64,000 nucleotides of DNA. Source: an uncultured Gemmatimonadaceae bacterium. GTDB lineage: Bacteria; Gemmatimonadota; Gemmatimonadetes; Gemmatimonadales; Gemmatimonadaceae. The stretch's first letter is position 1, and each line of letters begins with the position of its first letter. Made by a program: the position numbers and the translations under genes. The stretch lies in contig CAWGJO010000037.1 of assembly GCA_963822945.1 (NCBI GenBank), forward strand, positions 17,533 to 81,532, given 5' to 3'. Shown here piece after piece: positions 35,705 through 63,794 of this stretch. Under the pieces are notes generated by a model. That model did not search any database and was not told where the DNA came from. It was given only the letters and a program-made list of their open reading frames with translations.

Positions 35705-35912
35705 CGAGGCGTTTCGCATGAGGCCCGCCAGCATCGCCCGCTTCATCGCCGAGGCTTTGAACGCGGCGCGGAACTCGTTTTCGTTCATTGCGAGGATCTC
35801 AGTCGCGAGCGCCTTCGCGTACTTCTCCGTGATCACCGGCCGCGCCTGAATCGTAGCGTCCCGCAGGTCCCGCGTCCCGCGCGACTCCAGGTTCTACCGG
35901 CACACCTCCTGG
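35705..35912 (-). pseudogene. queG: queG 3' fragment A (epoxyqueuosine reductase C-terminal part)
   Basis: Translates QEVCR*N...AKALATEILAMNENEFRAAFKASAMKRAMLAGLMRNA, matching QueG CQEVCPWN...F...FKGS.MKRAK..GL.RNA. Confidence 0.8.
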
Positions 35913-35956
35913 GACGTGTGTCGACAGACCTGCATTGCGATCGCGTTGGAGACGGG
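35898..35956 (+). repeat. Palindromic att-like site A + conserved tail
   Basis: CGGCACACCTCC-TG-GGACGTGTGTCG ACAGACCTGCATTGCGATCGCGTTGGAGACGGG. Confidence 0.85.
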
Positions 35957-36168
35957 TGGGCGAACCATCGCCAGGAGAGGGAGCTAGTGCGGCATCGCTG
36001 CAGAAGCCTTGCGTCCGCAGGGCGGCAGTGTGTGAGATTGCTGATGCGACGTGGGTATTGCCTCGCGCCGCCAGACAACTTGACGTCGGGAGCCAGCCGC
36101 TGATAGACTCGCTCCGTGGCTTCACGCAGCCGCATGAATCCGGCGACGACACCCATTCGCGATCACCG

Positions 36169-38434
36169 ATGACCCTCTTTGGAGAGGCGGTCTGGACGCT
36201 TCGGTCGCTCCGGCGCAATCTGACCTTCGCCGTAACGTTCGTCGCGGTGTTCGCCATCGGGCTCGGCGCCGGTACCGCCGTGGTCGCTGCCACCCGGGCG
36301 ATCTATGGCGAGCGGCTGCCGGCACCGGCGCGTTGACGCTGGTCCGGATCTACACCGGGAATGCCGGCGCACCTGCCGCCAGCCCGGAGCGATTCGGCCG
36401 TAGCTCGATGCCGGAGATTCGCGCGTACGCCGAGGACAGCGCCGTGTTCCGTGCGGTCATCGCCACGAACAACTTCTCGGCGACGGTGGGCGTCGGCGAA
36501 CGGCGGCTGGCCGCTACGGGCTCCCTGGTGAGCGGCAACCACTTCTCCGTGCTCGGCCAGCGCGCGCAGCTCGGCCGCCTGATCGACCCCGACGACGATG
36601 CGGCGCGCGGGCGCGCCACCGTCGTGGTGCTGAGCGATGCGTTCTGGCACGCCTATTTCGGAGGACGCCGCAGCGCGGTCGGCGCCGTACTGCGGGTGAA
36701 CGGATACCCGTTCACCGTGGTCGGCGTGGCGGCGCCGGACTTCCGCGGGACGGCGTTCGACTACACGCCCGGGTTCTGGGTCCCCATTGCCGCGCAGTCG
36801 GAGGCGTACGGCTCGCCCTGGGTGGTCGATTATCCCGATGCCTGGATGTTCGATACCTTCGCGCTGCTCCAACCGGGGGTCACACCCGTGCGCGCGGACG
36901 GGCACTGCAATCGCTGAAGCGGGGGCTCCACGCGCGGGCGACGACTGGTATGACCAGCGCGTCGCCACGGTGCGATCAGGCCTCGACCTCGCTTGGCGCC
37001 TTCGACCGGCTGCGCCCACTCGTCGACCGGGTCAGCTGGCTTGTCGGCGCCGTCGCCATGCTTCTCATTCTCATCGTGACAGCGAACCTGGCCATGCTTC
37101 TCGCCCGGCGCTTCGCACAGCACCAGCAGATCGCATCCAACTCGGCACTTGCGGCGACACACGAGCAACTAGTGCGACAGCGGCGATCGAGACACTAGTC
37201 CTCACGTTCCCCGCCGTGGGCGCCGGGATCGTCGTCGCCCTGAGGCTCTCCGCGGTGTGGCCGCGCTCTTCCTCATGGCTTCCCCGGCCAGTCGGTTGTC
37301 GGCACCGCTGGCCGCCGGGCGGCCGCGACCGGGCTGGTGAGCGCGGCGTAGATGGCATCGCCTTAGCGTGGCGTGCGCCGCCCCGCTCACGGCCTGGCGC
37401 GCGGCCGGATGGGAGCACGGGTCGCGCGGCCGGCAGGTGCGTCACAGCTTCATGATCGCGCAGGTGGCCCTGGCGTTCGTGGTCGTACTCGTCGCGGCGT
37501 TCCTGCAACGGAGCGCCCACGCGCTCGCATCGGTGATCCGGGATCGACGTCGCAGACGTCCTACGGGCCGCGTCTACCTCTGGAACCGGGCGGGGTTCGA
37601 CGCGGGCTCGATCGCTCGGTACGACGGAGTAGTGCGGCGACTGCGTCTGGATTCCCAGGTGGTGGACGCCTCCTCGGCTGCGCGCAAGTCCTTCGGGCTA
37701 TGAAAACCGAACGGCGATGAGCGTACCGGGGCGTGCGCGGATTCGGGACAGGACAGCGTCGTCGCCTCGGCCACTGTCGGCATCCCAATACTCGCCACGC
37801 TGGGCGTTCCGATTCTCGAGGGGCGGGATTCGACCTGCGGGACACGGTCGGAGCGCCAGGGCAATCGTCGTCGATCGGGCGGCCGCACGGAACTCTGGTC
37901 AGGCGCAAGCGCGCTCGGTCAGGTGGTCCTCCATGCCGGCCAGCGCTTTGCAGTCGTCGGTGTCGTCGGCGACGCCGCCGCGCAAGACTGGACGCGCCTC
38001 ACGTGCCGCGAGTCTACTTCGCGACTCCAGGCCCAGGGCTTCGCACCGCCGCACCAGAAGCTGTTCATTCGGGTTCGCGGTCGGCGGACGCGGCCGGATC
38101 GCGCGCACGATCCAGCGCATCGCCCCGGGCCCCGCACGCGTCGAGCTGCGGACGTGGGGTCGATCCGCGACGATCAGTTCGGCGCGCTCGATGCGCTCGC
38201 GATCTCGTGGCGTCGATCGCGATCGTGGAGACGCTGTTGGCAGCGCTTGGCCTGGCCGGGCTCATGGCCTGTCTCGTCGGCCAGCGACTGCGCGAGACTG
38301 CCATCCGCCTGACGCTCGGCACCAAGCGGCGCTCGATTTTCTGGCTGCTGCTGCGCGATGCCGCGCGCTCAGTGCTCGCCGGAGCTGTGCTCGGCGCATT
38401 ACTCTGGGGTCGTACGGCACGACTGGTCGCTTAG
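36169..38434 (+). pseudogene. ADOP/MacB-type ABC permease, heavily frameshifted
   Basis: Fragments in different frames: FAIGLGAGTAV, VSGNHFSVLG, NGYPFTVVGVA, IVTANLAMLL, AQVALAFV, GQRLRETAIRLTLG. Confidence 0.75.
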
Positions 38435-38681
38435 TTCCTCGCCCGAGCAAAGGGGTCGATCGATCCCGTGAGCGTCACCGCGTCGCTGGTGACGGTCATG
38501 ACGGCCACGCTGGGGCTCGCAGCGCTGCCCTGCCTGAGCGGATCGCGACGGGCGCCCGTGTACCGGGGGAGTGAGGAGGGGCGATCAATGCTGGACAGTG
38601 GGTCCACGTGCTTCGCTCCCACGGTTCGAAGGGAGCGAATGAGGCTTGCCATATGGCGAACCCCATGGGTACGCTTGGGGC

Positions 38682-39421
38682 ATGCGCAACTTCGCGTACA
38701 ATCTGGTTCGGCGCGCGGCGGTCGTGGTCGCCGCGGTGCTGTGCCTGGGCGCTCCCAGCGTCGCCGCGCAGCAAGCTCCCGTGCGAGGTCGCGTCGTCGA
38801 CTCCGCGGGCACTGCGGTGTCGCAGGCCGATGTCATTCTGCTGCCCGACAGCCTCCACACCACAACCGATGGCACCGGCCGTTTCTCGTTCGGGCCGCTG
38901 GCCGCCGGCAAGCACATTCTGCGCGTGCGGCGTTTGGGGTTCGCCCCGGCATTCGTCCCGTTCATTGCGCCGCTGAACAGTGCCCTGGTCGTCGAACTGC
39001 CGCCGCTCCCGTAACGCTGCAGACGATCGTGACCAACGCGCTTTCAGGACGCCTGCCTCGCGTGATACAGCGCGAAGAGGAACACCTGGGTGTGCAGCTC
39101 TATGGGCCGCGCCTGGACAGCCTGTTGCACCGCCACGAGGGCATGACCGTCGGGGAACTGCTGCCCTGGGATCGCGCTGTGGCGCTCAAGCTGATGTCAT
39201 CCAGAGGGTGCCAAAAGGCGATCTATGTGGACGGCGACTCGGCCCGAGCGCCGATCCAATTCTACATCAGCAAGGATGAGATCGGGGCCATCGAGGTGTT
39301 CAATTCGCCCGACTTCATCCACGAGCCGTTCCTACCCCCGGATACCAAGGCCGGAAAGTGCGTGCAACTCATCCTGATCTGGTCCAAGTACTACCAACAG
39401 CAGCCGTGGGGCGGTAAATGA
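38682..39421 (+). CDS. Secreted carboxypeptidase-regulatory-like (transthyretin-fold) domain protein; frameshift near 39005
   Basis: Signal peptide, VRGRVVDSAG...TTDGTGRF...LRVRRLGF; C-terminal IYVDG...IGAIEVF...C...LIWSK. Confidence 0.7.
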
Positions 39422-39461
39422 ACAGCGCCGGACGGCCGTCGCGGTTCCGCTGAAGTCGTGC

Positions 39462-39520
39462 CGGCACACCTCCCGGGAGGTGTGCCGACACACTGTATTG
39501 AGATCTCGTTGGCGAGCGGG
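39462..39520 (+). repeat. Palindromic att-like site B (perfect 26-bp palindrome) + tail
   Basis: CGGCACACCTCC-CG-GGAGGTGTGCCG ACACACTGTATTGAGATCTCGTTGGCGAGCGGG. Confidence 0.9.
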
Positions 39521-39713
39521 CGGGAACTCCTGCGAGGACAAGCTGTTGGCGCGGAATCAAGGCGATGCCGACCCGAAGGAACGGCTTGACGGTCCCCGAT
39601 GGCTTTAGCAAAATGGAATCCGGTGCCGCGGAGCAGGGCACGATGAACTCCGCCGGAGTTCGTGCGCCGTCGGATCGCGATTGGCGCGAAGGCCGCAGCC
39701 TGGGGGAATCGCC

Positions 39714-42103
39714 GTGAAGGCCCTGGTGGACCGTTCCACGTTGCGCGCGCTCGCCCGCACACCGGGCTTCACGATCATGGTCATCGTGTCGCTGGCGCTG
39801 GCCGTGGGCCTCACGACCACCACCTACGGAATCGTTGACGCCGTGATGCATCCGTACGTGCCGTACCGTGCTCCCGAGCAGTTGTATGCGGTGCAGACCG
39901 ATGCCTTCGACGTTTCGGATGACCTCCTGGCCGACATGGCGCGGTCACTGCGTGCCCAGCGTCAGCTCTACTCGGACTTCGCGATGGCCCTGGCGGCGCG
40001 GGCGCATCCGACGATCGGCGTTGCCGGACAGACGCTCGACGTCTTTCCCCAGGAAGCCAGCGTCAACTTCTTCGACGTGTTGGGTGTTCGCATGTTCGCT
40101 GGCCGCGGGTTCCGGCCGGAAGATCGCGACGCGCCCGACCGCGCGGGGGTGGTGGTGAGCTACCGGTTCTGGCGACGGTACCTGCACGGCGCCATGCCGC
40201 TGAGTTCGGTGCCCGTGATGGTGGACGGCCAGGCCTACACCGTGATCGGGGTGCTCGGGCCCGATGTGCGGCGCGGCGACGTGTTCCTCGCCATGCCGCG
40301 CGCCACCGAAGAGGGATGGTTCTTCGGCGCCGGGCCCGTCCTCAGGGTGCGGTCCGGCGTGACCGAAGCGCAGCTGACCGCGGCCCTCCGCCTGGCTGCG
40401 CGCCAACCTGAGCCGGAAGTACGGTCCCCAGCACGTGATTCGCTATGAGGTGCGCTCACTGGCCGGCGCCCCGCGGCAATTGCAACCCTTCCAATTCGCA
40501 CTCTCCGGCGCCGCGCTGATCATTCTCCTGATCGCGTGCGCCAACGTCGCCAACCTGCTCATCGTCCGCGTCGTCACGCGGAGCGTGAAATTGCCGTGCG
40601 AATGGCGCTCGGCGCGTCGCGGCGTGACGTGGGGCGGTTCGTGTTCGGCGAAGCCATCGTGCTCGCCGTCGCGGGTGGTGCACTCGGGCTGCTGCTCGCG
40701 GCGTGGAGCATCCATCTGATCGAGTACCGGTTCACGATGGATGTGAGCCAGATCGGCCTCCTGCAGCCGCATTTCGACTGGCGGGTGGCAGCGGCATCTG
40801 CGCTGGCCAGCGCGCTCGTGGTGGTGCTCATCGCCTGGGGCGCGACGGTCCGCGCACGCGCCACGAACGTGAACGAGGCGATGAAGGACGGCGCCGGCAC
40901 GACGACGCAGCCGGCTCATCGCTCGCACGGATTGCTCGCGGTCACCGAGGTCGCCCTGTCCCTGGTGGTACTGATGGGGGCCGGCCTCTTGTTGCGCGCG
41001 AGTCAGGCCATCCGGCATTTCGACTTCGGCTACGACCCGCGGCACATAGTCTCGACGACGGTGGCGCGGCCGCGACGGGATTCGACCACGAGTCTCGGCG
41101 AGGAATTCTATGCCGACGTGCGCAACGGGATCCGCGCACTCCCCGGCGTGCGGGGCGTGGCCACGACCTACGAGGAAACGGTGCCGGCCAGCGCCGTGAC
41201 CTCGGACGTGGGCGGTGCATCGCCGCGCGTGGCGCGCATCCCCACCTACTCGGTGGTCTCTCCGAGTTTTTCCATCTCGTCGGGATTGCGATCAAACAGG
41301 GGCGTGACTTCGAGCCCGGCGACGTGGACAGCGCCGGCGCGGCGATCGTGGACGAGACACTCGCCCGGATGCTCTGGCCACACGAATCGCCGCTGCAACA
41401 TCTGGTCAAGCTCGGTGGGCCGCGTTCCAACGGGCCCTGGGTCCGCGTGGTCGGCGTCGTCCCGCCCATACGCTTCTCGTTCACGCCCGGCCGCGACCCC
41501 GACCAGGCAATGGCAGTGCATCCGAACGTCTGGGTAGCCAGGGCCGGGAGCGCGCACGGCGAGTACGACGGACGGAAGCTGTTCATCCGTACCCGAGCAG
41601 ACGAGGCCAGCGCCCTCGCCGGCGTGTCGCGGTATCTGCAGACCATCGAGCCGTGGAACCGACCCGTGTACCGGCCCATCCTCGAGCAATTCGACCAGGA
41701 GATGCAGCTCAGCCAATTTCTCGCGTCGCTGTTCGGGGCGCTCGCCGGCTTTGCCCTCCTTCTCTCGACGGTCGGGTTGTACAGTCTGCTGAGCTACATC
41801 GTGGCGCGGCGCGGGCGCGAATTCGCCATGCGAGCCGCGCTCGGCGCCCGCTCGCGCGACCTGGTGCGGGTGGTCGTTCGCGATGCGATGCTGCTGATCC
41901 TGGGGGGTACTGCCGTCGGTGCGTTCGGCGCCATGTGGACCGGCCGAGTGATGGAGCACCTGCTGTTCACGGTGAACCCGCTCGACGCACTCACCCTCGT
42001 GGCGGCCGAAGCCGTGCTCATCGTGATCTCGCTCGCCGCCGTCATCGGGCCGGCGTACCGGGCCACGCGGGCGGATCCCGTGGAACTCCTGCGAGCGACG
42101 TAA
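39714..42103 (+). CDS. ADOP/MacB-type ABC permease (about 3 frameshifts)
   Basis: LRALARTPGF...LALAVG; LIACANVANLL; VTEVALSLV; GLYSLLSYIV...EFAMRAALGA; ADPVELLR. Confidence 0.85.
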
Positions 42104-42134
42104 AGGCGTGATGGCGCCGGTACCAGGGCTATCG

Positions 42135-42312
42135 GCTTCGCCCGCTTCATCGCCGAGCCTTTGAACGCGGCGCGAAAGTCGGCTTCTCTCATGGCGAGGG
42201 TCTCCGTCGCCGGTGTCTCACCGCGTCCTTCTCGCCGAGTGCCGCCCGCGCCTCGACCCTCGGCTCCCTCACATCCCTTGCGACTCCAGGATTCTACCGG
42301 CACGCGTCCGGG
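42135..42312 (-). pseudogene. queG: queG 3' fragment C
   Basis: ETLAMREADFRAAFKGSAMKRAKP; DNA similar to fragments A and F. Confidence 0.75.
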
Positions 42313-42330
42313 GAGGTGTGCCGACAAACC
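42298..42330 (+). repeat. Palindromic att-like site C (degenerate)
   Basis: CGGCACGCGTCC-GG-GGAGGTGTGCCG ACAAACC. Confidence 0.8.
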
Positions 42331-42428
42331 ACATCGAAATCGAACCGAGCACCGGACGCCGAGCCACCTCCGCCACATGAACTGAATCGACCAATCGCCC
42401 GTAACACGGCAACATTCCCGGCCGCGCG

Positions 42429-45068
42429 TTACCCCGCGTCGCCCTGAATGCTCCGTACCACGTCCTGGCGCAGCATGCGGCGGATCGGGAGCGCCATTCC
42501 GAACCCCATCACGACCAGCAGAGTGACCGCGACCACTCCCACCGGCACGAGCTGCATGGCGAACATCGGCTTTCCCGCGAACGGGTTCCGCAGGTAAGTG
42601 TCAGCGATGTAAACGGCGCGCGAGCCGAGGAGCAGCCCTCCAAGCGTCGCCAACAAGGCGACAGTGCCAAGGTCGGCGACGAGCGCACGGACCAGGCGGC
42701 GCGGAGTGGCGCCGAGAGCAACGCGGATGCCGAACTCCCGCGCCCGGAGCGCCACCGAGTAGGACGTAAGCCCATACACGCCTGCCACGGCGAGCACGAA
42801 CGAGAGCGCCGCCATGAACGCGAAGAAGTAGGTCCGAGACCGTGCCTGCGCGCTCCAGCGGTCGACGACGGCGGCGACGGGCTCCAGATCGCTCACGACG
42901 ATGCGCGGGTCGATGCGCCCTACGGCTTCTTTCACGGCGCGGAGCCCGGTTGCCGGGTCTCCGACCGTTCGAATGCGGACTTCAGTCGTCGTGTGGCCGA
43001 GCGGTAGACTCTGTACGGTGTAGATCGGCGGCGTCAGGGGGTCGAAGTTCGGCATGTCGCGCACATCGGGTACGACACCGACCACGGTGAACCAGGTGAC
43101 GCGGGCGGAGCCGTCGAGCGCGAGTCCGACTCGCCGGCCGATGGGAGCCCGATCGCCAAAGGTCCAGTGGGCCGTCGTCTTGGAGAGCACGATCACAGGG
43201 GCGTGCGCTTCGGCCTCCGCCGCCGTTGGAAGCCGGCCCAGGATCGGTTTGAGGCCCAGCGTCTTGAAGTAGCTCAGCGAAACGTCCTTCCAGGCCTCGG
43301 CGGCGTACAGGTGTGGCCGCCAATCCGGGTAGAAGCGAGCAGCGCCCGGTATGGGCGTCCGCACCACAGCCGCGGACTGAATGCCGGGGATGCCTTCAAC
43401 CGCCTGGACGAGCGACATGGCGGTCTCCTGCGATGCGACGGTGTCGGGGACGCTCAGCCGGGCCGTGAGGACTTGTGAATAGTCGAATCCCGGTCCGGCG
43501 CCCTGTGCATCCCGATTGGCGACCACCAGGGCCGCCAGCATGGCCATACACGCCAGCGACAGTCCGAGCTGAAGCGCGACGAGACCGCGTCGGTTGCGGA
43601 TCTCTCGCGAACCGCCCGTTGATGAAGATGCGCCGGACAGCACGGCTCGAAGGTCGGCGCGCGCGAGATCGATGGCGGGCGCAAGGCCAAACAGCAGGCC
43701 GACGAGGACGGTTCCGGCAACGCCGAACGCCACCGTTGGCCAGTTCATCCGCGGCACCACCAGCATGAAATCCCGTCCGAACCAGAGACGGCGCGCGTCG
43801 AGGAGCCACTTTGCGATGACGATGGCAGCGGCGCCGCCGGCGGCCGCCATGAGCGCCGCCTCGATGGTGAGCATGCCTACGATGCGTCGCCGGGACGCGC
43901 CCAGGGCTACGCGTACCGCGATCTCCTCTCGGCGCCGCATGCCACGCGCGAGCAGCATCGTCGTGAAGTTCACGGCACCGAGCAGGATGATTACGATTGC
44001 CGCCGCAATCCAGAGGCGAATCAGGTTGCGGTAAGGGGACGTGACATCCCGGGCCAGCGGCAAGAGATCCGCCACCGGGGTTTTGGCCAACCCGGCGACG
44101 ATGCCCGCCTGATGGAATGCGACCGACACGTCGGCCTGGGCGCGGGCCATCGGGACGCCCGGCCGGAGCCGGGCGATCACAACGTTATTCTGCCATTTCC
44201 TGTCGGCGGGTGGCGTGGCCAGCCGCCGAAGGCTGTCGTGACCCAACGGGAGCCAAATGTCGGTGCCGAGTGGCAGGCTGAACCCCTGCGGCATTACCCC
44301 AACGATCGTCGCGTGCTGTCCATCGACAGGCACCGTGGTGCCAATCACGTCCGATCGTCCACCGAACTCGGAATGCCAGATGTCGTAGGAAAGAATGACG
44401 GGCGGCACGGTTTCATGCGCATCGTCTTCCGTAAACGCGCGCCCGAGAAGCGGGCGCACACCGAGAACGTCGAAATAGTTCGACGTCACCGGAACGGACG
44501 ATACGCGGATCGCGTAGCCGCTGGGGCCGAGGTCCGAGCCGGGTCCGTACTCCTGCGCGACCGCGACGCCGGAGAAGGAGCGCACTCGCTGCGCGGCCAG
44601 CGCATCACGCGCGGGAAGCACGGAGAAGAGCGAATTCATCTGCGGGTCGCGCTCGCGGACGATGACCAGCTCTGCCTGGCTGGGAAAGGGTAGCGGACGC
44701 AGAAACAGCGCGACCACCATGCTGAACACGGCGGTGGCGAGCGCCATGCCAAGCGCGAGCGAAAGCGATGCGCCACCCACCGCTCCCGGGTGCCGCCGCA
44801 AGCGCCGCGCCGCGCTCGCCGCCTCGGTGAGTGACCGCTCGATCCACGGGAGTCCGCGCTGGTCGCGGTAGGCGTCGCGTGCTGCCTCGAGGCCGCCCGC
44901 GTGTACCATCGCGAGACGGCGGGCTTCGGATGGCGCCATTCCGCGGCGCACAAGCTCGTCGGTCTCCAGGGCGAGGTGCGCGGCGAACTCTTCGTTCATG
45001 TCGCCGTCGCGATGCGCCCGGCGGAAGAATCCGCCGACCCGGACAATGATTTCCCGAACTTTGCTCAC
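42429..45068 (-). CDS. ADOP/MacB-FtsX duplicated ABC permease
   Basis: EEF.AHL.LET..L..RGM...EARRLA...GG; RREEIAVRVALGA; GVYGLTSYSV..RAREFGIRVALGA. Confidence 0.9.
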   Translation of the reverse strand: MSKVREIIVRVGGFFRRAHRDGDMNEEFAAHLALETDELVRRGMAPSEARRLAMVHAGGLEAARDAYRDQRGLPWIERSLTEAASAARRLRRHPGAVGGASLSLALGMALATAVFSMVVALFLRPLPFPSQAELVIVRERDPQMNSLFSVLPARDALAAQRVRSFSGVAVAQEYGPGSDLGPSGYAIRVSSVPVTSNYFDVLGVRPLLGRAFTEDDAHETVPPVILSYDIWHSEFGGRSDVIGTTVPVDGQHATIVGVMPQGFSLPLGTDIWLPLGHDSLRRLATPPADRKWQNNVVIARLRPGVPMARAQADVSVAFHQAGIVAGLAKTPVADLLPLARDVTSPYRNLIRLWIAAAIVIILLGAVNFTTMLLARGMRRREEIAVRVALGASRRRIVGMLTIEAALMAAAGGAAAIVIAKWLLDARRLWFGRDFMLVVPRMNWPTVAFGVAGTVLVGLLFGLAPAIDLARADLRAVLSGASSSTGGSREIRNRRGLVALQLGLSLACMAMLAALVVANRDAQGAGPGFDYSQVLTARLSVPDTVASQETAMSLVQAVEGIPGIQSAAVVRTPIPGAARFYPDWRPHLYAAEAWKDVSLSYFKTLGLKPILGRLPTAAEAEAHAPVIVLSKTTAHWTFGDRAPIGRRVGLALDGSARVTWFTVVGVVPDVRDMPNFDPLTPPIYTVQSLPLGHTTTEVRIRTVGDPATGLRAVKEAVGRIDPRIVVSDLEPVAAVVDRWSAQARSRTYFFAFMAALSFVLAVAGVYGLTSYSVALRAREFGIRVALGATPRRLVRALVADLGTVALLATLGGLLLGSRAVYIADTYLRNPFAGKPMFAMQLVPVGVVAVTLLVVMGFGMALPIRRMLRQDVVRSIQGDAG

Positions 45069-45436: not shown

Positions 45437-45505
45437 ACGTACGAATCGCCCCCGTGGGCGGCAAGAGGCCGGCGGCGGGTGCGTTCAGCGGCCGACGGTT
45501 TGTGT

Positions 45506-53902: not shown

Positions 53903-54140
53903 CATAGTTGCGAGCTTCACCATTTCGCTTGACGGATACGGAGCCGGCCCGAATCAGGACCTCGACCATCCCATGGGCGTTGGCGGACAGGATCTGCACC
54001 CGTGGCTCCTCTCGACACGCACCTTCCAGGTTCCGGTCTTCGTCCTGACCCATCACGCGCGGCCACCGCTCCCGATGGAAGGCGACACGGCGTTCCACTT
54101 CTTCACGGGCGGCATGCGCGAGGCGCTCGACCGGCAGACG
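53903..54140 (+). pseudogene. Dihydrofolate reductase/RibD-C family fragment with internal deletion
   Basis: SFTISLDGYGAGPNQ...GG..LH.W joined directly to PVFVLTHHAR...FHF. Confidence 0.7.
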
Positions 54141-54192
54141 GGAACACGGCTCAAACGCCGCGCGGCTGTGCCGCGCGAGGAGAGGAACCGGT

Positions 54193-55088: not shown

Positions 55089-55160
55089 GGATGCGCGCTG
55101 AGCGAACAACACCACCCATCGTGAGACGGCGCCGGATTGCCTCGGGAGGTCGGATCAGTC

Positions 55161-55646
55161 GTGAATCGTGATAATGAGCTGCTCCTGCACTTCCTGGCGG
55201 CCATCGCCTACCGGACGCAGAAGGCACTGCGCGGCGCCCCAGCGCGCTATCCGGACCTCGCGGTCGGTCACGGCTCGCGAACGCCCGTCGAGATTCTCCG
55301 GCACATGACCAGTCTCATGGGCTACACTCAGACGCTGTTCCTGGGTGGTGAATACCCGATGGTCCCCGACGCACTGCCCACGTTTGACGACGAGGTGGCG
55401 CGGTTCCACGACGAGTTGAACGGTGTGGGAGCGCTGCTGAGGTCGGGGGCGTCGTTGCGAGACATCTCCACGGAGCAGTTGCTGCAGGGCCCGTTGGCCG
55501 ACACGATGACCCACGTGGGACAGCTGGCCCTGATGCGGCGCCTCGCCGACAGCGCCGTTCGCGGGGAGAATTTCATTTTTGCCGAGGTGCGCGCAGACCG
55601 GTTGGGGGTCGATCAGGCCGCGCCGGCTCGCCCGGACCCGGAATGA
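55161..55646 (+). CDS. DinB-like hypothetical protein
   Basis: RTP.EIL.H...QGPLAD.MTHVGQLALMRRL. Confidence 0.7.
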   Translation: MNRDNELLLHFLAAIAYRTQKALRGAPARYPDLAVGHGSRTPVEILRHMTSLMGYTQTLFLGGEYPMVPDALPTFDDEVARFHDELNGVGALLRSGASLRDISTEQLLQGPLADTMTHVGQLALMRRLADSAVRGENFIFAEVRADRLGVDQAAPARPDPE

Positions 55647-55786
55647 TCTGACGCGGGCTCGCTACGGGGCGCTGCCGGCGCCAACGTCGCGCCTGGCGCC
55701 CTGCGGCGCCGGCCGCGACTATTAGAAAACGTCGCAGGAGAGCGCCGCGGCGCTATGCGACCGACTCGAGGACCGCCTGGCTTCTC

Positions 55787-57028: not shown

Positions 57029-57109
57029 TCTGGTAATCGGCGTCGTCCGCGTACGCGGCGAAAGCGGCCGGACCACGGGCCGCTCGTACAGCACGTGATA
57101 GGCGAGGCC

Positions 57110-57243
57110 GGCGACCACCGCGGTGACCACGTGGCGAAGAAGAGCAGGAAGAACCCGTAGAACGTCATCTCGAAGACGAGGGTCCACGCCGGGTCCAGAG
57201 CGGGCCGAGCATGAGACGGGAGGAGCGTCAGCGAGGTGAACAA
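57110..57243 (-). pseudogene. Acyltransferase-3 (OafA-like) internal fragment
   Basis: SLTLLP...DPAWTLVFEMTFY..F. Confidence 0.5.
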
Positions 57244-57249
57244 GCTCCA

Positions 57250-57468
57250 ATGCGGCGTGAGTGCCTATCGCAACACCACTTTTTGTCGCTCGAGGACGCG
57301 CAGCAGATTCTGGACACGTGGCGGGACGAGTACAACAACGAGCGCCCGCACAGCAGCTTGCACGACCTCCCACCCGCTCACTTCCGAGCCGCGGGAGCGA
57401 ACCACGCAGACCGAGTCGTCCAGCATTCCTGACTTCAATACTGGTCCGTGGATGTGGCCAAGAGCCCA
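57250..57468 (+). mobile_element. Remnant 3' end of a second IS3-family element
   Basis: RRECLSQHHFLSLEDAQQILDTWRDEYNNERPHSSL; IRR-like end ...TGGTCCG...CCCA. Confidence 0.7.
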
Positions 57469-57561
57469 ACGGCCTGGGTCCCTGAAAAGTGGTCCAGCCG
57501 GGGTCCCGTTTTGACAGGGAGCTGAAGCGAGGCCAGACTCTCGGGAGAGAGGAGGCCAGGG

Positions 57562-57828
57562 ATGCGGAAGAGCAAGTTCACGCCGGAGCAGATCCTCCAG
57601 GCGCTGCGGCAAGCCGAGGGCGGGACGGCGGTGGTTGACATCTGCCGGAAGCTCGGGGTCACGGAGACGACGTTCTATCGCTGGAAGAAGCAGTACACGG
57701 GGCTCGACGTGAGCGAGTTGCGGGAGCTGAAGCAGCTGCGGGATGAGAATCGGCGGCTGAAACAGGTCGTCGCCGATCTGACGCTCGACAAGACGATGCT
57801 GCGCGAGGCGCTCGGAAAAAAATGGTGA
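57562..57828 (+). CDS. IS3 transposase OrfA
   Basis: MRKSKFT.EQI...CRKLGV...TFYRWKK; A7 slippery site at 57816-57822. Confidence 0.92.
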   Translation: MRKSKFTPEQILQALRQAEGGTAVVDICRKLGVTETTFYRWKKQYTGLDVSELRELKQLRDENRRLKQVVADLTLDKTMLREALGKKW

Positions 57829-58676
57829 GCCCAAGCCAGCGACGCCGGATGTTGGCTTGGGCGCGGGGCGCCTATGGCGTGAGCGAGCGGCGCGCGTGCC
57901 GCGGCTTGGTGATCCAGCGCTCGTCGATGCGCTACCGGGCCCGGCGGCCGGACGATGCGCCGGTGCGCCGCCGCCTCCACGAGCTGGCCCGGGATCGCCC
58001 CAGCTTCGGCGCGAAGCGCCTGCACGTGCTGCTGCGCCGGGACGGGCTCCGGATCAATCACAAGAAGGTGCATCGGCTGTACATCGAGGAAGGGCTGCAA
58101 CTCAAGCCACGTCGCCGGCGTCGCCGCTCCGCGACCGTTCGACAGCCGCGGGCCGTGGTGAGCCACGCGAATGAGCGGTGGGCGATGGACTTCATGCACG
58201 ACGTGTTGGCCACCGGGCAGACAGTGCGCGTGTTCACGCTCGTGGACGTCTACACGCGCGAGTGCGTGGCGCTCGAGGTCGCGCGCTCGTTCCGGGGGAG
58301 CGACGTGGCGCGGCTCCTCAGCGATGCCGGCGAGCGCCGCGGCGGCTTACCCGCCATCATCCAGTGCGACAATGGGACGGAGTTCACCTCCACTGCGCTG
58401 GATCACTGGGCGTACTGGAATCGCGTCAAGCTCGACTTCAGCCGCCCGGGGAAGCCCGTCGACAACAGCGTGTGCGAGGCCTTCAACGGCAGCGTACGAC
58501 GTGAGTGTCTCACGTGTCATTGGTTTGCCTCTCTCGCGGAGGCGCGCGTCACGCTAGCTTCGTGGCGCGAGGACTACAACAACCACCGGCCCCATACGAG
58601 CTTGGGGCTGCAACCACCGGCGGCGTACGCGGGCGCCGGCCACTACCTACCTCGCATCAGAACTCTCAGAAACTGA
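57822..58676 (+). CDS. IS3 transposase OrfB (DDE)
   Basis: WAMDF, DVYTREC, CDNGTEF, EAFNG..R.ECL, YN..RPH.SLG. Confidence 0.93.
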   Translation: MVSPSQRRRMLAWARGAYGVSERRACRGLVIQRSSMRYRARRPDDAPVRRRLHELARDRPSFGAKRLHVLLRRDGLRINHKKVHRLYIEEGLQLKPRRRRRRSATVRQPRAVVSHANERWAMDFMHDVLATGQTVRVFTLVDVYTRECVALEVARSFRGSDVARLLSDAGERRGGLPAIIQCDNGTEFTSTALDHWAYWNRVKLDFSRPGKPVDNSVCEAFNGSVRRECLTCHWFASLAEARVTLASWREDYNNHRPHTSLGLQPPAAYAGAGHYLPRIRTLRN

Positions 58677-58763
58677 CGCTCTGGCGCGGATCAGTTTTGG
58701 GGACCCAGGCCCACACTCAGAAACTGACGCTCTGGAGCGGATCAGTTTTGGGGACCCAGGCCC
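58665..58763 (+). repeat. 51-bp tandem duplication of the IS3 right end
   Basis: CTCAGAAACTGACGCTCTGG.GCGGATCAGTTTTGGGGACCCAGGCCC at 58665 and 58716. Confidence 0.9.
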
Positions 58764-59038
58764 AACCCGAACGCTGGGACATAAGAACTGGGATAGCGTT
58801 GGGGTTCACGTGACAGAGTCTGTCGGTCTCCGGAGCCACCAGCATCGGCCGGTCGGTCGCTGAGTTAACCTCGGTTAACCAGCCAATGACCCATGGTTAA
58901 CCCCTCTGACCCTACTGTATTTCGGAGATTGGGAGGGGGATGCCAACCGCCTTCCTCGACTCCCCAATACCGAGATCGCCGTCGCTGCCGCTGGCGACAA
59001 GGCGATGAACTTCCGCTCCCCCAATCTGGAGGCGTCCA

Positions 59039-59713
59039 ATGCGACCTCTCTCTCTGGCCGTCACACTCCTCATAGTCACCGCGTGTGACGGCGTACAACC
59101 CACGGCCCCTGCCGCACCCGACCAGACGAATCTCGGACCATCACGGATATTGGCAGCCAAGGACAACTCGGGAGCGCCGCACCAGAGGCTCACACGGGGA
59201 GACGCTGAAGCGGTGCTCAACGCGTTCGGAACCGCCGGCTACCTGATCACGGCCAAGAAGGGATTTGTCCCGGTATCGGCCGCGCCCGGCGACTTCTACG
59301 GCGACAAGGGAGCCATCCGGCCCCTGCCCTACCTTGACGGGCATCACTATTGCACGCTCGACTGGCTCGTGCCGATGTTCGCGGTATTTGATTGGGACGA
59401 TGCCAGTACGGGGCCGCGCTCTCCCCATGAGATCCGAGCGGAGCTTGCAAGCAGTTCGGTACTCCTGTCGATTGACGGCCAGGCGTTCCCAACCCGGCGC
59501 ACCCCCGTAAAGCCAGCCAACGCGCAGCGAGCCTTTGGCGATGCGAACGCCTTTGGCTACCAGGTCGGCAATCCGGTACCTCCTGGTACGTTCTCGATCG
59601 GCGCACACACGATCCATGCGGACGTCTTCTTGGATGGTGTGCTTGATGACTTCGGTCTGGAAACCACCACGTTCTATATCGATGATGCATCGTCGGCCAC
59701 CTGCACAGGATAG
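59039..59713 (+). CDS. Hypothetical lipoprotein
   Basis: GGAGG RBS, lipobox VTAC; no recognisable domain. Confidence 0.65.
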   Translation: MRPLSLAVTLLIVTACDGVQPTAPAAPDQTNLGPSRILAAKDNSGAPHQRLTRGDAEAVLNAFGTAGYLITAKKGFVPVSAAPGDFYGDKGAIRPLPYLDGHHYCTLDWLVPMFAVFDWDDASTGPRSPHEIRAELASSSVLLSIDGQAFPTRRTPVKPANAQRAFGDANAFGYQVGNPVPPGTFSIGAHTIHADVFLDGVLDDFGLETTTFYIDDASSATCTG

Positions 59714-59745
59714 CGAAGTCACACGAGAATCCTCGCGGCCCCAAG

Positions 59746-60172
59746 GGATAGGAATTTCAATCCCCGTATGGTCAGACGGGGGCGCGCTGGGAACCGGTGT
59801 GCAACTGGGAGCCGGCGGGGGCGCGGCCCGCAGCGGGGCGTTGGGCCGCGCGCTTGGGGAGGGCGGCTGCTGTACCGGGGCGTGGCGGGTCCCCGGCGGG
59901 CGTTGCGCGCCCCGACGGGCACGCCGAAGGTCCCCCGGGGCGAGCCCAGGGGCCGATCGGCGGGCGATCAGGATGAGACGCGGGAGGCGGCGCGCCGCGG
60001 GGGCGGGGCCGCGAGTCGGCGCTCGGGTGGGGGCCCCCGCCCCCGCGTGGCCCGGCGGAGGTGGGCGAGGATCCGATCGATCACCGCTCCCTCGGTGATG
60101 ATGGCGAGGATGCGCATCGCGCCGCCGCACGCCGGGCAGGCGAGCGGGTCCACTTCATAGATGTGGCGCACG
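59746..60172 (-). mobile_element. Second IS91/ISCR-like remnant: transposase C-terminus + oriIS-like end
   Basis: RHIYEVDPLACPACGGAMRILAIITEGAVIDRILAHL...RGPP; end sequence GGGGATTGAAATTCCTATCCC on the minus strand. Confidence 0.75.
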
Positions 60173-60296
60173 ATGGCTACTCTTTCTTGTGACACTTGTT
60201 GGGGCGTCCGTACCGTTTGTAGTTAGCTGGCGGTGGTTTAGCGCACGAGAAGCGACCTGACACCGCCTAGAATCACGACCATAATTGTTTGCTGCC

Positions 60297-60395
60297 GTAT
60301 AACACGCGCTTGGAGCGGTCAACCGCGCCGGCGTACCAGTTGGATGGCTGACATATTGTGAGCGCGGATTGCCGCTCGAACGCAAACCGTCAGAC
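60297..60395 (+). other. Integron attC site
   Basis: R'' GTATAAC, GAGCGG/CCGCTC and CAACCGCGC/GCGCGGATTG stems, R' GTCAGAC. Confidence 0.7.
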
Positions 60396-60411
60396 CGCCA
60401 TCGAGGATCCT

Positions 60412-60825
60412 ATGCGATGTGCAGCACTTGCTTTGGCCATGCTCCTCGCTGGAACGCAAGCCAACGCTCAGTCGAGAACCGTTTTCAAGGGCAGTCCCTT
60501 TGTTAAGATCAGCGAAGCCGGGTCCAGCCGTGTGGTAGACTCGCTCTCGCGTCCACGCGCCGAAAATCTAAGCGCCGTGGTTAGCGAGATTTCCGGGACA
60601 TATTACTGGGCAAGTCGAGAGAACAAGGAGCTAATCAGACACGAATCGGGCGCCTTCATTACTTATGCTGCTACCGATGGGTCGGGTTACATCCGTCTGA
60701 TCGATCCACTGTTTAAAGATGCGGCAGCATTGATTGGTGATTCTGAAGCAAAGTACGACTACGTAGAGCACCTGTTGATTGGGCTCGGTTCAGTGACCTA
60801 CTATGGCGTTGCCGACGCCTTTTGA
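60412..60825 (+). CDS. Secreted hypothetical protein (integron cassette gene)
   Basis: Signal peptide; lower GC than flanks; lies between an attC and a partial attC. Confidence 0.7.
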   Translation: MRCAALALAMLLAGTQANAQSRTVFKGSPFVKISEAGSSRVVDSLSRPRAENLSAVVSEISGTYYWASRENKELIRHESGAFITYAATDGSGYIRLIDPLFKDAAALIGDSEAKYDYVEHLLIGLGSVTYYGVADAF

Positions 60826-60838
60826 TTGGAGACGGCCG

Positions 60839-60865
60839 GTCTAACAGGCGCTTGAAGCAGTCCAG
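60839..60865 (+). other. Partial attC (R''/L'' half)
   Basis: GTCTAACAGGCGCTTGAAGCAG directly after the cassette gene; the matching second half is not evident. Confidence 0.5.
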
Positions 60866-61016
60866 CCCCCCAGGCCTCGGCCTCCTTGCGGCGGCCCCCT
60901 GGCGGTGCACACTCGATGGAAGTCAGACAATTCGCTGCGGGCGAGGCACCGGAACCACGTTTAGCGATGTGTGTGCCCGAACGATTCCGGCCGTTCCGAA
61001 GAGGAGGTATTAGCTC

Positions 61017-61307
61017 ATGACTGGATCGATCGCGTTCAACGGCGGCGCCACGAAGGTCGCCAAGATCAACTACCAGCTACCCATGCCGGGCAGCCATCAC
61101 GGCCGACGCCTTGTGCGGCTCGACCTGGGAATCAAGGGCTCCGAGTGGAGCGACGACGCCAAGGCCTTCGGCGAACAGCCGGGCGAGGCGGCTGGCATCG
61201 GGCCGTCCGGCCAAGGCTATACGATCGACGTGGCGCGCGCCCGTGAATACCTGCGGGGCAAGCTCACCGCCGTGGGCTTCCGCGCGACGACGTCGATCTC
61301 GCGCTGA
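61017..61307 (+). CDS. Hypothetical protein, 96 aa
   Basis: GAGGAGG RBS; first gene of a co-oriented cluster. Confidence 0.55.
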   Translation: MTGSIAFNGGATKVAKINYQLPMPGSHHGRRLVRLDLGIKGSEWSDDAKAFGEQPGEAAGIGPSGQGYTIDVARAREYLRGKLTAVGFRATTSISR

Positions 61308-61331
61308 CGCGACTGCCAGGAGTGATCACCG

Positions 61332-62770
61332 GTGACGCCGAGACGCCACGCCGACGCCAGCGTCGGGACTGCACTGCGAGCCGCGGCCGTGTCTCGCGCC
61401 ACGCTCATGGCCACCACGGCCGCGGTCGGCGCGGTGGACTCGATCTCCACCGCCGAGCCAGCCCCGGCGCCGGCACCCGCGCCTGCCCCGCCACCCACGG
61501 CGTCGGATCGCCTCGACGAGATCGTCGACGTGTTCGTCGCGAACGCGAACCGGGGGCTCGTCACGTCGATCCTTCTCGACTCCACGGGCGAGACGGTGCT
61601 GCAGACCTCGCCGGTGACTGTGGTGGAGGAGCCGACACTGTTCCTGGTGGAGAAGGTGGCGATCTCGTCGTTCCTTGGCGATTACGGCATGGGCCGCACC
61701 GTGCGGACATTCACGCTACTGCCAGGGGAAACGACGTCCATCCGGATCAAGACGTGGCAGTCCACCGAGGAGTCGCGCAAGCAGGCGTCATCGATCATCG
61801 ACTCCCACGAGCAAGAGGCGCAGACGCGGTTCCAGAGCGAGGTGCAGTCCGAGACCACCGACAAGCAGACGCGCAGCTCGGAGGAGAAGTGGTCGGTGGA
61901 AGCCGAGGCATCGGCCAGTGGGGGTGGGGTAGCGCCAAGGTAAGCGGATCGGCGTCGGGCGACTACCAGTCGGGCCGCGAGCAGTTCGCGAAGCAGGCGT
62001 CGTCGGCCGTGGGCGAGCATGCGGCCAAGGCGTCTTCCAAGCGCCAGCTGTCCGTCACGAGCGAGTCCGAGTCAAAGTCCACCACCGGCGAGGAGTCTGT
62101 GATCGAGCGGACGATCGAGAACGTCAACGTGAGGCGCGTGCTCAACTTCGTGTTCCGCGGGCTCAACCAGGAGTACTCGACCGTTCTGCACCTCACGGAC
62201 ATCCAGGTGGCGTTTACGAACCGGCGCACCAACTCCTGGCGCATCGTCCCGATCTCGGGACTGCGCGGCCTGCTCGAGACACTGCTCAAGGCCGCGCCCA
62301 AGCGCCGCGGCGAGATCGCGTCGCTAATCCTCAAACTCGCCGGAACCGTGATCGACGACCAGAGCGCGTCGGTCCGCACGCTCGACGCGCTCCACTACGA
62401 CGTGGTCAACGACGTCATGACCGTGGGTCCGGTGACGATGGACGTGCAGGGCATGCCCGCCCCGCCCACCGAATCCGACTACTACCGATTCAAGCCGGGC
62501 CCGCTCGGGTCGCAGACGGAGGTGGACGGCGTGCGCATGAGCCAGCAGACCATCGTCATGCGGACGGATTCCGTGCTCGTCGAGGCGCTGCTGGGCGAGT
62601 CCGACGCGCTCGACGAGTTCGCAATGGAGGTGCAGCAGGCAGCCGCGACCGCGCAGACACTCGCCAACCAGCGCGAGACGCTGCTGCAGTCCACGCTGAA
62701 CGCCATCGCGGATCCGGCCGAGCGCGCCAAAGCCGCCGCGGCGTTATACGGGCCGGTGAAGGAGACGGCC
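61332..62770 (+). CDS. Ser/Thr-rich hypothetical protein, candidate beta-pore-forming toxin (frameshift near 61920; end approximate)
   Basis: SSFLGDYGMGRTV.TFTLLPGE...WSVEAEASAS/WGWGSAKVSGSASG...ERTIENVN..RVLNFVFR.LNQEY. Confidence 0.55.
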
Positions 62771-62771
62771 T

Positions 62772-63576
62772 ATGGGCGACACGATCACCGACACCTCCAA
62801 GGTGGCCGGGACATCGAAGGTCACCGGCACGGGCGTCGCGAACACAGCGCCGGTGCTCGGCAAGGCGGGCGCGCCGGCGGCGGGGAAGCAGCCGCCTCCG
62901 CCGCCGGCGATCCCGGCCTTCAAGGACAAGGCGGCCGCGCTCGCATGGGCCAACGAGGTGGTACACAAGGATCTCGGCCTCAACTCGACATCCGTGTACT
63001 GGTTCTCGGTGTCGGCCTCCAAGCGCCCTCATCCGCGGACCGGCCTGCCGCCGGACCCCGGCCTCGTGGACTGCGGCTTCGCCGCCTGGACCAACACGGC
63101 CACCGACATCTACCTTTTCGATGCGCTATGGGATAACAACCTGTCGGTCGGTGTCGGCTCGGCGCAGCAGGCCGAGCTGGGCAACGGTGGCGCACGAGTC
63201 GCTGCACGCCGTGCACTTCAAGTCCGCGTGGGGCGGTGGGCACCCACCGTCGCTCGCGACCGGCTTCCACCACGAGTGGAGGACGTATGCGGCGAGCGCC
63301 AAGGCGCTGGGAGCGCCCACGCACAGCAGGGTGAAGCGCTTCATCGCCGAGGCGGCAGGCAAGGATGAGCTGGCGCCAGAAGGCCGCGCAGGAGGGAGTC
63401 GCCAGGAGTTCGCGGGCTGGTACAACGGCCACAAGGCCGGGATTGGGAAGCTCAACGCCGACCAGGCGGAACTTGAATACCTGAAGTTCTTCGAGAAAAT
63501 CAATGGACTGCCGCCGAAGATCCTCGCTTCGGGCAAGACACCAAAGGAGATGCTACAGTTGACGTATGGATACTAA
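62772..63576 (+). CDS. Putative zinc metallopeptidase (HExxH); frameshift near 63175
   Basis: GGAG RBS; Pro-rich linker; VAHESLHAVH followed by HHEWRTY. Confidence 0.55.
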
Positions 63577-63599
63577 GCCCAGTGCTCCTGCGTGAAGCC

Positions 63600-63665
63600 G
63601 CGCGGTACCGGTTGACGTGCCCGCGCGCGGTGGCATACCACCCGTAGTAGCGCGTCACCACCGCA
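63600..63665 (-). mobile_element. IS91-like transposase internal fragment
   Basis: VVTRYYGWYA(T/A)RG resembles the catalytic RYYG.Y motif of Y2 rolling-circle transposases. Confidence 0.55.
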
Positions 63666-63684
63666 TTCTTCCGTGCGACCGTCT

Positions 63685-63794
63685 CCCGCGCTCGAACCTC
63701 GGCTCCCTCACCTCCCGCGCGACGCCAGATTCTACCGGCACACCTCCTGGGAGGTGTGCCGACAAAACTGTATTGAAATTGTATTGGCAACGGG
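63685..63794 (+). repeat. Decayed queG-derived flank + palindromic att-like site F + tail
   Basis: CGGCACACCTCC-TG-GGAGGTGTGCCG (63736-63761) ACAAAACTGTATTGAAATTGTATTGGCAACGGG; the left flank aligns with site C. Confidence 0.9.

Follow-up and report, generated by a model that had tools for sequence, protein, structure and literature searches.

Co-oriented palindromic junctions and displaced queG 3′ ends in a Gemmatimonadaceae genome: a probable island of repeated site-specific integration

The DNA analysed here (the window) is a stretch of 64,000 nt from an uncultured Gemmatimonadaceae bacterium (genome G000; 45 contigs, 3.97 Mb, 88% complete), corresponding to positions 17533-81532 of contig C37, and its right edge is the end of that contig. 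Relatives of G000, contigs and extracted loci are designated by G, C and L numbers, respectively. The right half of the window is occupied by gene modules separated by palindromic sites, to the left of which fragments of the 3′ end of the gene queG are usually found. Most probably, this array makes up the distal third of a single island, at least 97 kb long, that grew by repeated site-specific integration of the large serine recombinase (LSR) type into the second Fe-S motif of queG (CxEVCP), the event that the sequence-only reading, an earlier reading of the letters of this DNA, had proposed to have accumulated in tandem. The features of the island in the window, including its open reading frames (ORFs), are as follows.

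32150..32330, no strand: far end of the island; synteny with the backbone of the relative G128 ends at about 32150, and only a distal tail is kept at about 32297-32330, the palindrome and the last queG fragment being lost.
32357..35609, no strand: terminal module with an amidohydrolase (32357-34366, minus), an extracytoplasmic function (ECF) sigma factor (34314-34823, plus) and an unknown ORF (34824-35609, plus) (Pfam).
35645..35911, minus: queG 3′ fragment A (residues 231-307), with an in-frame TAG.
35898..35923, plus: palindrome of junction site A.
35924..36010, plus: tail A, whose plus frame reads WDVCRQTCIAIALETGGRTIARRGS followed by a stop.
36011..39461, plus: module A-B, with pieces of an ADOP-type permease (MacB_PCD at 36333-36917) and a CarboxypepD_reg protein (38646-39014) (Pfam).
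39462..39575, plus: junction site B and tail; perfect palindrome with centre CG, 1-nt deletion in the tail, left flank not queG.
39681..42103, plus: module B-C, with an ADOP permease (MacB_PCD and FtsX) split across frames (Pfam).
42124..42308, minus: queG 3′ fragment C (residues 232-292), frameshifted, with a TAG.
42298..42400, plus: junction site C, centre GG, with a degenerate tail.
42429..45409, minus: module cargo, an ADOP permease and a PadR regulator (45065-45409) (Pfam).
45458..45580, minus: queG 3′ fragment without palindrome (residues 275-310), a decayed junction inside which homology with the relative G211 begins.
45607..48505, plus: module cargo, a Ser/Thr kinase with TPR repeats in a split frame, 98% identical to G211, where its neighbours differ.
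48474..48608, minus: queG 3′ fragment D, beginning QEVCPFNRKFS.
48595..48705, plus: junction site D and tail, whose frame stops early (WEVRRQNCIAMRLENG followed by a stop).
48737..63690, plus: module D-E (15 kb), with a Sel1-repeat protein, two ABC ATPase/permease pairs, RibD_C, an NhaA antiporter, an IS3 element (57562-58676) and unknown ORFs.
63691..63720, minus: queG remnant E, short and frameshifted (AREVREPRFE).
63736..63850, plus: junction site E and tail; the array goes on outside the window in contig C19.

The five palindromes follow the 26-bp pattern CGGCACACYTCC-NG-GGAGGTGTGCCG with 0-2 mismatches, start at 35898, 39462, 42298, 48595 and 63736, and all lie on the plus strand, with arms of 11-12 bp inverted around a central TG. 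No match to the pattern was found in 100 dinucleotide-preserving shuffles of the sequence, so that the five co-oriented copies first described by the sequence-only reading are confirmed. The same holds for the tail to the right of the palindrome, which by alignment is conserved at sites A, B, D and E and degenerate at site C, and for the continuation of four copies into minus-strand QueG-like 3′ sequence on their left (sites A, C, D and E). In particular, fragment A matches QueG with an E-value of 3e-12 and an in-frame TAG, the match of fragment C is split over two frames with a TAG, fragment D matches weakly (E 0.04) yet begins with QEVCPFNRKFS, and nothing but the frameshifted AREVREPRFE is left of fragment E. 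The left flank of site B has no QueG likeness. That the fragments are QueG follows from their matches to the family profile TIGR00276 and from tblastn alignments that start at residue ~229-231. A sixth fragment (45458-45580), lacking the palindrome, had been overlooked, and the start of the array, earlier placed at 35705, had to be moved to near 32150. Finally, the window shows signs of decay: stops and frameshifts occur in three of the fragments (A, C and E), and the frame of the tail is broken at sites B, C and D.

The intact queG, whose 5′ part had been expected to the right of the window, was found on contig C31 (C31:17015-17944; 311 bits against TIGR00276, cut-off 200 bits). It is the sole intact copy of G000 and heads the array, as queG fragments and sites lie downstream of it on the same strand. 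Moreover, the last 6.5 kb of C37 and the first 6.5 kb of C19 overlap (C37:75002-81532 and C19:1-6548) with an identity of 99.3%, and the array therefore continues in C19. In total, at least 97 kb of the island are assembled (38.3 kb in C31, 27.6 kb in C19 and 31.9 kb in C37), the join of C31 and C19 being unassembled. In G128, a genome with no island, queG is flanked by a homologue of C37:45509-49682 (= L033:1-4175) and by a homologue of C31 upstream of 17770. Since both flanks are joined there at queG, C31 and the left part of the window represent the two shores of one island. G128 and G078, both of the same genus as G000, have no site and a single uninterrupted queG match each, which bears out the expectation that module gain would be seen on comparing the queG locus among relatives. 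In G211, a full site with its tail precedes the amidohydrolase gene, where G000 keeps the distal tail only. All tail-bearing copies of G000 are confined to C31, C19 and C37 (16 distinct junctions, plus tail-less fragments), and the other pattern match in the 3.97 Mb, on C6, has four mismatches and no tail; the scatter over the genome that had been named as evidence against the sequence-only reading was thus not observed. Altogether, the locus has the intact target, the displaced 3′ fragments, all in one orientation and of different origin, and the empty state in relatives that characterize a tandem accretion island at the 3′ end of a gene.

Some peculiarities of the same assembly should be mentioned here. 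Near the end of C31, two junctions and the DNA between them are repeated in inverted orientation (49946-51683 and 52683-54414), which could be a real duplication or a fold-back assembly artefact. Furthermore, the entire C8:1-9390 of G000 is an 89% copy of C31:24145-33306 that ends exactly at a junction site, and it could belong to a second strain in the bin or be a diverged duplicate.

The anatomy of the junctions was established on 71 distinct junctions, anchored on the right arm plus tail. The conserved partner is the right arm GGAGGTGTGCC with the tail, and the left arm is variable: it consists of the queG codons of QEVCP (GGCACACCTCC, GACAGACTTCC) or of variants like QACCP (GACAGCAAGCT), or it adjoins unrelated sequence. 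The palindrome is perfect because the arm of the element mirrors the commonest queG codons. Junctions from three genomes allowed the exchange to be placed. The left flank, left arm and TG of G198 C8:36572 are in common with G000 C31:48319, and its unusual right arm GGCGATGTACC and tail are in common with G211 C18:134033. Similarly, G198 C7:9220 and G211 C13:538511 have a variant right arm GGACGTGTGCC and the tail in common and differ in their left sides. As the junctions reassort there, the exchange is confined to CC-TG-GG, in agreement with the module boundaries formerly proposed at the palindrome centre. The sites have the central dinucleotide and the partly symmetric half-sites of an LSR attachment site, the 2-bp staggered cut itself not being decidable in silico.

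The junction centres are mostly CA. The crossover codon of the intact queG is CAG in six other genomes, GAG in G000 (C31 ~17700) and G198, and GGG in G211. A GAG or GGG codon would change the central dinucleotide for a serine recombinase, and the queG genes of G000, G198 and G211 may be refractory to further integration. Among island-bearing genomes, the 3′ part of the intact queG is the more diverged one (for instance, 87.1% identity between G000 and G211, vs. 96.8% for the 5′ part), and a mapping of the crossover from these identities was tried and abandoned, given that the closest pair has no sharp step at the motif. Rearrangement by other means is also evident. The kinase module (45544-48653) is 98% identical in G211. 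One end of this homology falls within a queG fragment; the other falls ~30 nt short of the palindrome, and at this point G211 has the arm joined to the second GGAGGTG of queG (REVREP). The arrays are thus reshaped by homologous recombination and deletion. A variant junction was also observed at C19:28888-28911 of G000 and C7:14418-14444 of G198 (GGCACCCCTCC TG GGAGAAGGGCC), with a queG-like left flank, a different right flank common to both in place of the tail, and DNA to its left that resembles the sequence beside an IS110 gene on C20.

Sites were present in 13 of the 17 genomes of the genus. The strict genus-specific 33-nt pattern was found in none of 195 genomes of other genera, because the tails of these have diverged. 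A metagenome scan returned 22 loci, 21 of which have a queG fragment left of the site, at the same codon; the remaining one (L060) was rejected as an AT-rich chance match. The whole family was surveyed using the last 86 residues of QueG as the query in 301 genomes (the tallies include seven unpublished genomes, on which no specific claim is based). Extra copies of the QueG C-terminus were found in many genera, with 22 in G010, eight in G240, seven in each of G083 and G132, and four in each of G039 and G112, and their alignments begin at query residue 5-7, which corresponds to residue ~229-231. Moreover, the genera g10, g39 and g53 have the same palindrome and a homologous tail, and the junctions of G083, G132, G039 and G112 read ...ACGTTCCACGG GCACACGTCC TG GGAGATGTGTC GGTATAACCGTTTTGAGATCCCGCTC..., encoding E-M-C-R-Y-N-R-F-E-I-P-L.

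The cargo of the modules was analysed in a scan of 292 ORFs (100 in the island part of the window, 58 in C31 and C19, 40 in G002 and G167, 29 in G209, G203 and G210, and 65 in metagenome loci). It consists mainly of PadR regulators with duplicated MacB/FtsX ('ADOP') permease pairs; also present are kinases, ABC transporters, Fic, HipAB, and AAA_14-DUF4143 accompanied by PRiA4_ORF3, a protein of 204 aa. Among the scanned modules, sizes range from 2.4 kb (G002; Fic and PRiA4_ORF3) to 15 kb (module D-E of the window). No serine or tyrosine recombinase was found among the 292 ORFs, the mobility genes of which are only those of insertion sequences (IS): IS3 in the window (57562-58676), G167 and G210, IS110 at C31:34104-35231 and as a pseudogene in G167, and IS91 in G210. 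The PRiA4_ORF3 protein was considered as a core component, since it stands beside queG fragments in G002, G209 (twice), G203, G210, G132 and L067, but it is missing in the majority of modules and no catalytic role is known for it, and it was taken as cargo. The ADOP permease and kinase genes of the window are split where contigs from public sequencing runs differ from it by 1-2-nt indels (36320, 38024, 40400, 46133-46233 and 48858), and these frameshifts may be assembly errors instead of marks of pseudogenes.

A candidate enzyme was found in other genera. Two LSRs were present among 117 ORFs of the arrays there, both lying directly against the intact queG in convergent orientation. The protein of G039 (L083:9693-11966; 757 aa) contains a Resolvase (38 bits) and a Recombinase (45 bits) domain, and that of G132 (L085:2619-4787; 722 aa), with a Recombinase domain, is 50% identical to it over 719 aa. 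Both ORFs lack a stop between the body and queG, cross all of the queG 3′ end on the antisense strand (...RFMGEPLNEAENSACDM...ENLRLYGHTSW) and terminate at the crossover or at most five codons beyond. Two more loci in public metagenome-assembled genomes are alike, with L089 stopping at the crossover and L091 running ~30 codons further into antisense queG. Overall, LSR homologues appeared in 13 of the 301 family genomes. In 11 of these, an LSR or a fragment of one adjoins the intact queG convergently, on the opposite strand and 210-330 nt from the QueG C-terminal match (G039, G132, G107, G098, G061, G164, G240, G231 and G073, and fragments in G218 and G190), while G018 and G144 were unplaced. 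Eight full-length matches (at least 51% identity) lie in open frames of 716-915 aa. A sequence search of the PDB, using the LSR as the query, found nothing at E≤0.001. The guess of a serine recombinase made by the sequence-only reading thus holds for these genera, where the gene is linked to the site, and is not supported in G000 and the nine other genomes of its genus that were searched. As to gene content, the element of G039 beside queG, which spans ~27 kb and bears the recombinase (L082:8211-17675 and L083:488-9478), carries a load of defence genes, comprising type I restriction R and S subunits, an Mrr nuclease, a PIN-TPR-GreAB-C-type protein, a PD-(D/E)XK nuclease and AAA ATPases.

The tail bears a signature of coding sequence that leads back to these recombinases. 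In 68 distinct tails, variability is 3-periodic at positions ~37-55, and the plus frame reads W-E-V-C-R-Q-N-C-I-(A/E)-I-P-L-x-T-G-G-R-T-L and closes at a conserved TAG/TAA ~25 codons past the W. In this frame, 39% of the codon differences are synonymous and one tail of the 68 has a stop, compared with 7-17% synonymous differences in four control frames. Between genera, the Leu codon TTG changes to CTC while the peptide E(I/V)PLxTG is kept. Furthermore, the plus frame across the junction (...F-H-G-H-T-S-W-E-V-C-R-Q-N-C...) is that in which the LSR ends (...Y-G-H-T-S-W). Coding on the plus strand is therefore favoured, though not proven. The tail peptide was not found elsewhere in G000. With regard to RNA, RNAalifold gave essentially no consensus structure for 23 tails, and a small hairpin of the distal tail, in which the changes appear to compensate each other, was noticed by eye only.

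On this basis, a mechanism can be proposed for the integration of LSR-type elements into queG. The site of an incoming element would consist of a spare queG 3′ end, the central crossover (TG on the plus strand of the window), the arm GGAGGTGTGCC and the tail of ~90 nt. Integration would splice the spare end to the 5′ part of the resident queG, which would remain whole with ~75 codons replaced each time, and the old 3′ end would be displaced downstream, headed by the palindrome and tail. Since each integration would push the old end downstream, the newest module is the one beside queG and the oldest are those in the window. As the tail frame continues the LSR ORF, attP probably lies within the recombinase gene: in the excised circle, this ORF would run through the palindrome into the tail, which would encode the last ~25 residues of the recombinase, and integration would swap them for a few codons of antisense queG. 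Both partners would share the queG 3′ half, so that the products would resemble the substrates, with queG staying attB-like and the junctions attP-like, and repeated integration would be explained by this resemblance. The sequences directly establish how the junctions are built and distributed, the empty sites, the interval of the crossover, the linkage of LSR and queG and the coding signature of the tail; that the LSR family made the junctions of this genus is inferred, as are the excised form and any activity at present. As neither G000 nor nine relatives carry an LSR, the modules of G000 are not self-sufficient elements; they would be either decayed remnants or passive cassettes moved in trans. 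More speculatively, blocks of modules could be excised by an enzyme supplied in trans. No excised circle was seen, and none of the contig joints listed for public runs (short low-depth contigs, with sides of 20-30 nt) had both ends at sites.

Several observations weigh against integration by an LSR as the origin of the island. To begin with, a protein with its own Resolvase and Recombinase domains is present only in other genera, and neither the window nor the whole of G000 has one or a recombinase gene linked to the site. A search of G000 (88% complete) for Resolvase was blank, and tblastn with the LSRs matched only antisense queG there; the LSR was not found in the nine other genomes of the genus searched, and the enzyme is therefore extrapolated from other genera for all ten. 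No LSR remnant was seen beside the module queG fragments examined, which also speaks against simple decay. Moreover, scans of viral contigs for the site and for the LSR, as signs of a free or unintegrated element, gave no contig. The attB is also unusual for an LSR, as the queG 5′ half is not an inverted repeat of the 3′ half, and some module boundaries, compared between G000 and G211, fall within queG fragments or ~30 nt off the centre. The minus frame of the tail in phase with queG shares the wobble positions of the plus frame and reaches 31% synonymous differences, with stops in five of the 68 tails. Finally, ORFs outside the window were picked by a purpose-made filter on GC content at third codon positions, which can miss genes.

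The absence of the LSR from the ten genomes of the genus searched favours the alternative that integration into queG is real but is carried out in this genus by another recombinase or by an RNA-guided enzyme of the IS110 type. An IS110 transposase does lie 0.8 kb from the site at C31:33297, and a pseudogene copy stands beside queG in G167. However, this genus and the genera that bear the LSR have homologous sites and tails, and the frame in which the LSR is read is maintained in the tail. The IS110 of C31 has 78%-identical copies at unrelated loci of G002 and none at the queG island of that genome, and the DEDD transposase per element with a guide RNA that would be expected of IS110/IS1111 is not seen, as IS110 is near one site and the tail looks protein-coding. 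The tyrosine recombinases common to five genus genomes are only two Xer-like ones in each. Tyrosine recombinases were also considered as the enzyme in G000 and rejected, its matches on C24 (Xer-like) and C6 (weak) being far from the island and the additional ones of relatives being integron integrases with their own attC arrays. Another enzyme in this genus is consequently regarded as unlikely.

Homology breakpoints inside queG fragments would also be expected had the array grown mainly by duplication and homologous recombination between queG repeats after one or a few ancient integrations. A G211-specific insertion of 3.2 kb, bounded by a 28-bp repeat near the queG stop, and the inverted duplication of C31:49.9-51.7 kb at 52.7-54.4 kb point in the same direction. 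Against this, the fragments share no more than 45-70% identity with the resident QueG, and their QEVCP codons are different (GACAGACTTCC, GACAGCAAGCT), so that they come from different donors; in addition, the module contents are unrelated to each other and the tails have diverged under coding constraint. Growth by duplication is, for these reasons, decidedly improbable.

An integron-like origin, in which the modules would be cassettes captured by an integron integrase (IntI) using the palindrome as an attC- or attI-like site, is of slighter probability still. The modules lack a recombinase of their own, as cassettes do, and IntI (TIGR02249, >400 bits) was found in nine of 17 genus genomes (8/13 with sites and 1/4 without). 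Nevertheless, IntI is encoded at loci away from the array, which carry attC cores of the classical kind (GCCTAAC...GTTAGGC) that do not resemble the site, and both G000 and G211, which has the largest array of the genus and is 95% complete, lack IntI. Neither an adjacent intI nor the folded R″/L″-L′/R′ structure of attC was observed, as single-stranded DNA folds gave the 11-bp palindrome hairpin only, without an attC-like bipartite stem (z-scores from -2.9 to +0.7), and the enzyme physically linked to the site in other genera is the LSR. The chromosomal IntI loci of G198 C6, G167 C8 and G002 C4 (L042, L043 and L044; >400 bits) have attC cores in G198 and G167 and, in G002, two IS110 genes beside intI.

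The probability is next to negligible that the palindrome and tail are a dispersed element of the repetitive extragenic palindromic or miniature inverted-repeat transposable type, or a regulatory operator and leader of the cargo operons formed with no recombination: the cargo often reads away from the tail (e.g. PadR-ADOP operons right behind it) and the distal-tail hairpin covaries by eye, but tail-bearing copies are all in the queG island with none elsewhere in the 3.97 Mb, 21 of the 22 copies in metagenomes are bordered by a queG fragment, always at the same codon, RNAalifold gave no consensus and Rfam nothing at gathering thresholds, and cargo orientation varies, the module between site C and 45.6 kb being on the minus strand.

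Other features were noted in the window and its surroundings. The window has no Rfam match at gathering thresholds and no tRNA or tmRNA gene. The IS3-family element (57562-58676) comprises an HTH_Tnp_1 ORF and an rve ORF, and a 116-bp end piece of it recurs at C31:35571-35686 (96.6%). Outside the island, inverted repeats of ~300 bp, 80% identical, surround a 2.5-kb segment at 5141-5455 and 7925-8227 (C37:22672-22987 and 25457-25759). This repeat also matches many loci on C20, C44, C36, C25, C35, C6, C12, C17 and C27, with matches staggered by ~16 nt that suggest an internal short-period tandem structure. In G002, the conserved backbone upstream of queG (with deoxyhypusine synthase, LOG-like and phosphodiesterase genes) includes an RmuC-family gene (L025:11509-12738) at a distance of ~4 kb from queG, probably by coincidence.

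Among known systems, the closest in logic is the composite island of staphylococcal cassette chromosome (SCC) elements at rlmH. SCC and SCCmec elements are described as using serine recombinases (Ccr), targeting the 3′ end of the gene and standing in tandem, with some lacking ccr (psi-SCC) (PMC13739063; bioRxiv 10.1101/336396). A serine recombinase, the 3′ end of a conserved housekeeping gene, tandem pile-up and recombinase-less members would be common to both. In contrast to SCC, the queG system hits an Fe-S motif, with ~75 codons that would be replaced each time, and occurs in a different phylum (Gemmatimonadaceae); its recombinase ORF runs antisense over the spare gene end, with attP apparently inside, and its arrays reach ~20 junctions and ~100 kb.

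The well-studied large serine integrases of phages and integrative elements that insert in genes (A118 in comK, SPbeta in spsM and the phiC31 type) likewise combine a Resolvase with a Recombinase domain. Their sites are short, have a dinucleotide at the centre and an inner dyad, and lie in coding sequence, and the elements usually interrupt the gene or restore it only upon excision. In the queG system, by contrast, the gene would be repaired by the carried 3′ end, and the product sites would resemble the substrates, both left halves being queG 3′ sequence. A directionality factor was not identified in the queG system, no search aimed at one having been made. In the mycobacteriophages BPs and Brujita, known for integration-dependent immunity, attP lies inside the repressor gene and integration removes a C-terminal degradation tag (PMC3694055). 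The queG system would be alike in having attP within a coding sequence and C-termini that differ between the free and integrated forms, but these phages split the repressor and their integrase is a tyrosine recombinase, whereas here the serine recombinase itself would be split. The integrases of archaeal viruses of the Sulfolobus spindle-shaped virus (SSV) type have attP within the integrase gene, which integration partitions, and copies may become stranded once integrated. These integrases belong to the tyrosine recombinases, act on tRNA targets and are split in the body of the gene, while the queG system would exchange the last ~25 codons only.

Integrons and clusters of attC sites lacking integron integrases (CALINs) resemble the queG arrays in being co-oriented, recombinase-less arrays at a fixed entry, with the newest unit nearest to it and orphan arrays without the enzyme; they differ in that the queG system has no attC structure, unlinked IntI, multi-gene modules of 2.4-35 kb and an enzyme of a different superfamily. 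No work linking queG to integration or to serine recombinases was found in the literature outside subscription journals and the supplementary tables of recombinase surveys, the one co-occurrence being unrelated.

It can be suggested, as a tentative and rather doubtful extension of integration into queG, that the system works as a serine-recombinase 'integron' with queG as its entry point, the LSR gene lying antisense over the spare queG end and spanning its own attP, so that integration would both repair queG and swap the C-terminus of the enzyme. If true, such an antisense placement over the replacement end of the target, together with a C-terminus that depends on integration, would be an unusual and testable design for coupling the form of the recombinase to its integration state. 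Recombination directionality factors have no common sequence family (PMC11795197). In this design, the C-terminus of the LSR (WEVCRQNCIAIPLxTGGRTL) could sense the free or integrated state and might set the direction of the reaction with no directionality factor. Moreover, the variation of the crossover codon (CAG, GAG or GGG in the intact queG; CA, CG, CC and CT at junctions) could act as a lock between hosts and lineages of elements, and excision and re-insertion in trans would explain the long recombinase-less arrays of PadR-permease, toxin-antitoxin and defence cassettes across the family.

Enzymes of this kind serve in genome engineering, and the LSR family is a candidate tool, with a core of ~26 bp and a natural target conserved in many bacteria. 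For the biology of the family, the island traces a hotspot of gene gain of ~100 kb, found family-wide in a poorly studied phylum of soils and sediments, to one site in one gene, and it suggests a concrete way in which PadR-ADOP permease pairs, toxin-antitoxin modules and defence genes could have spread there.

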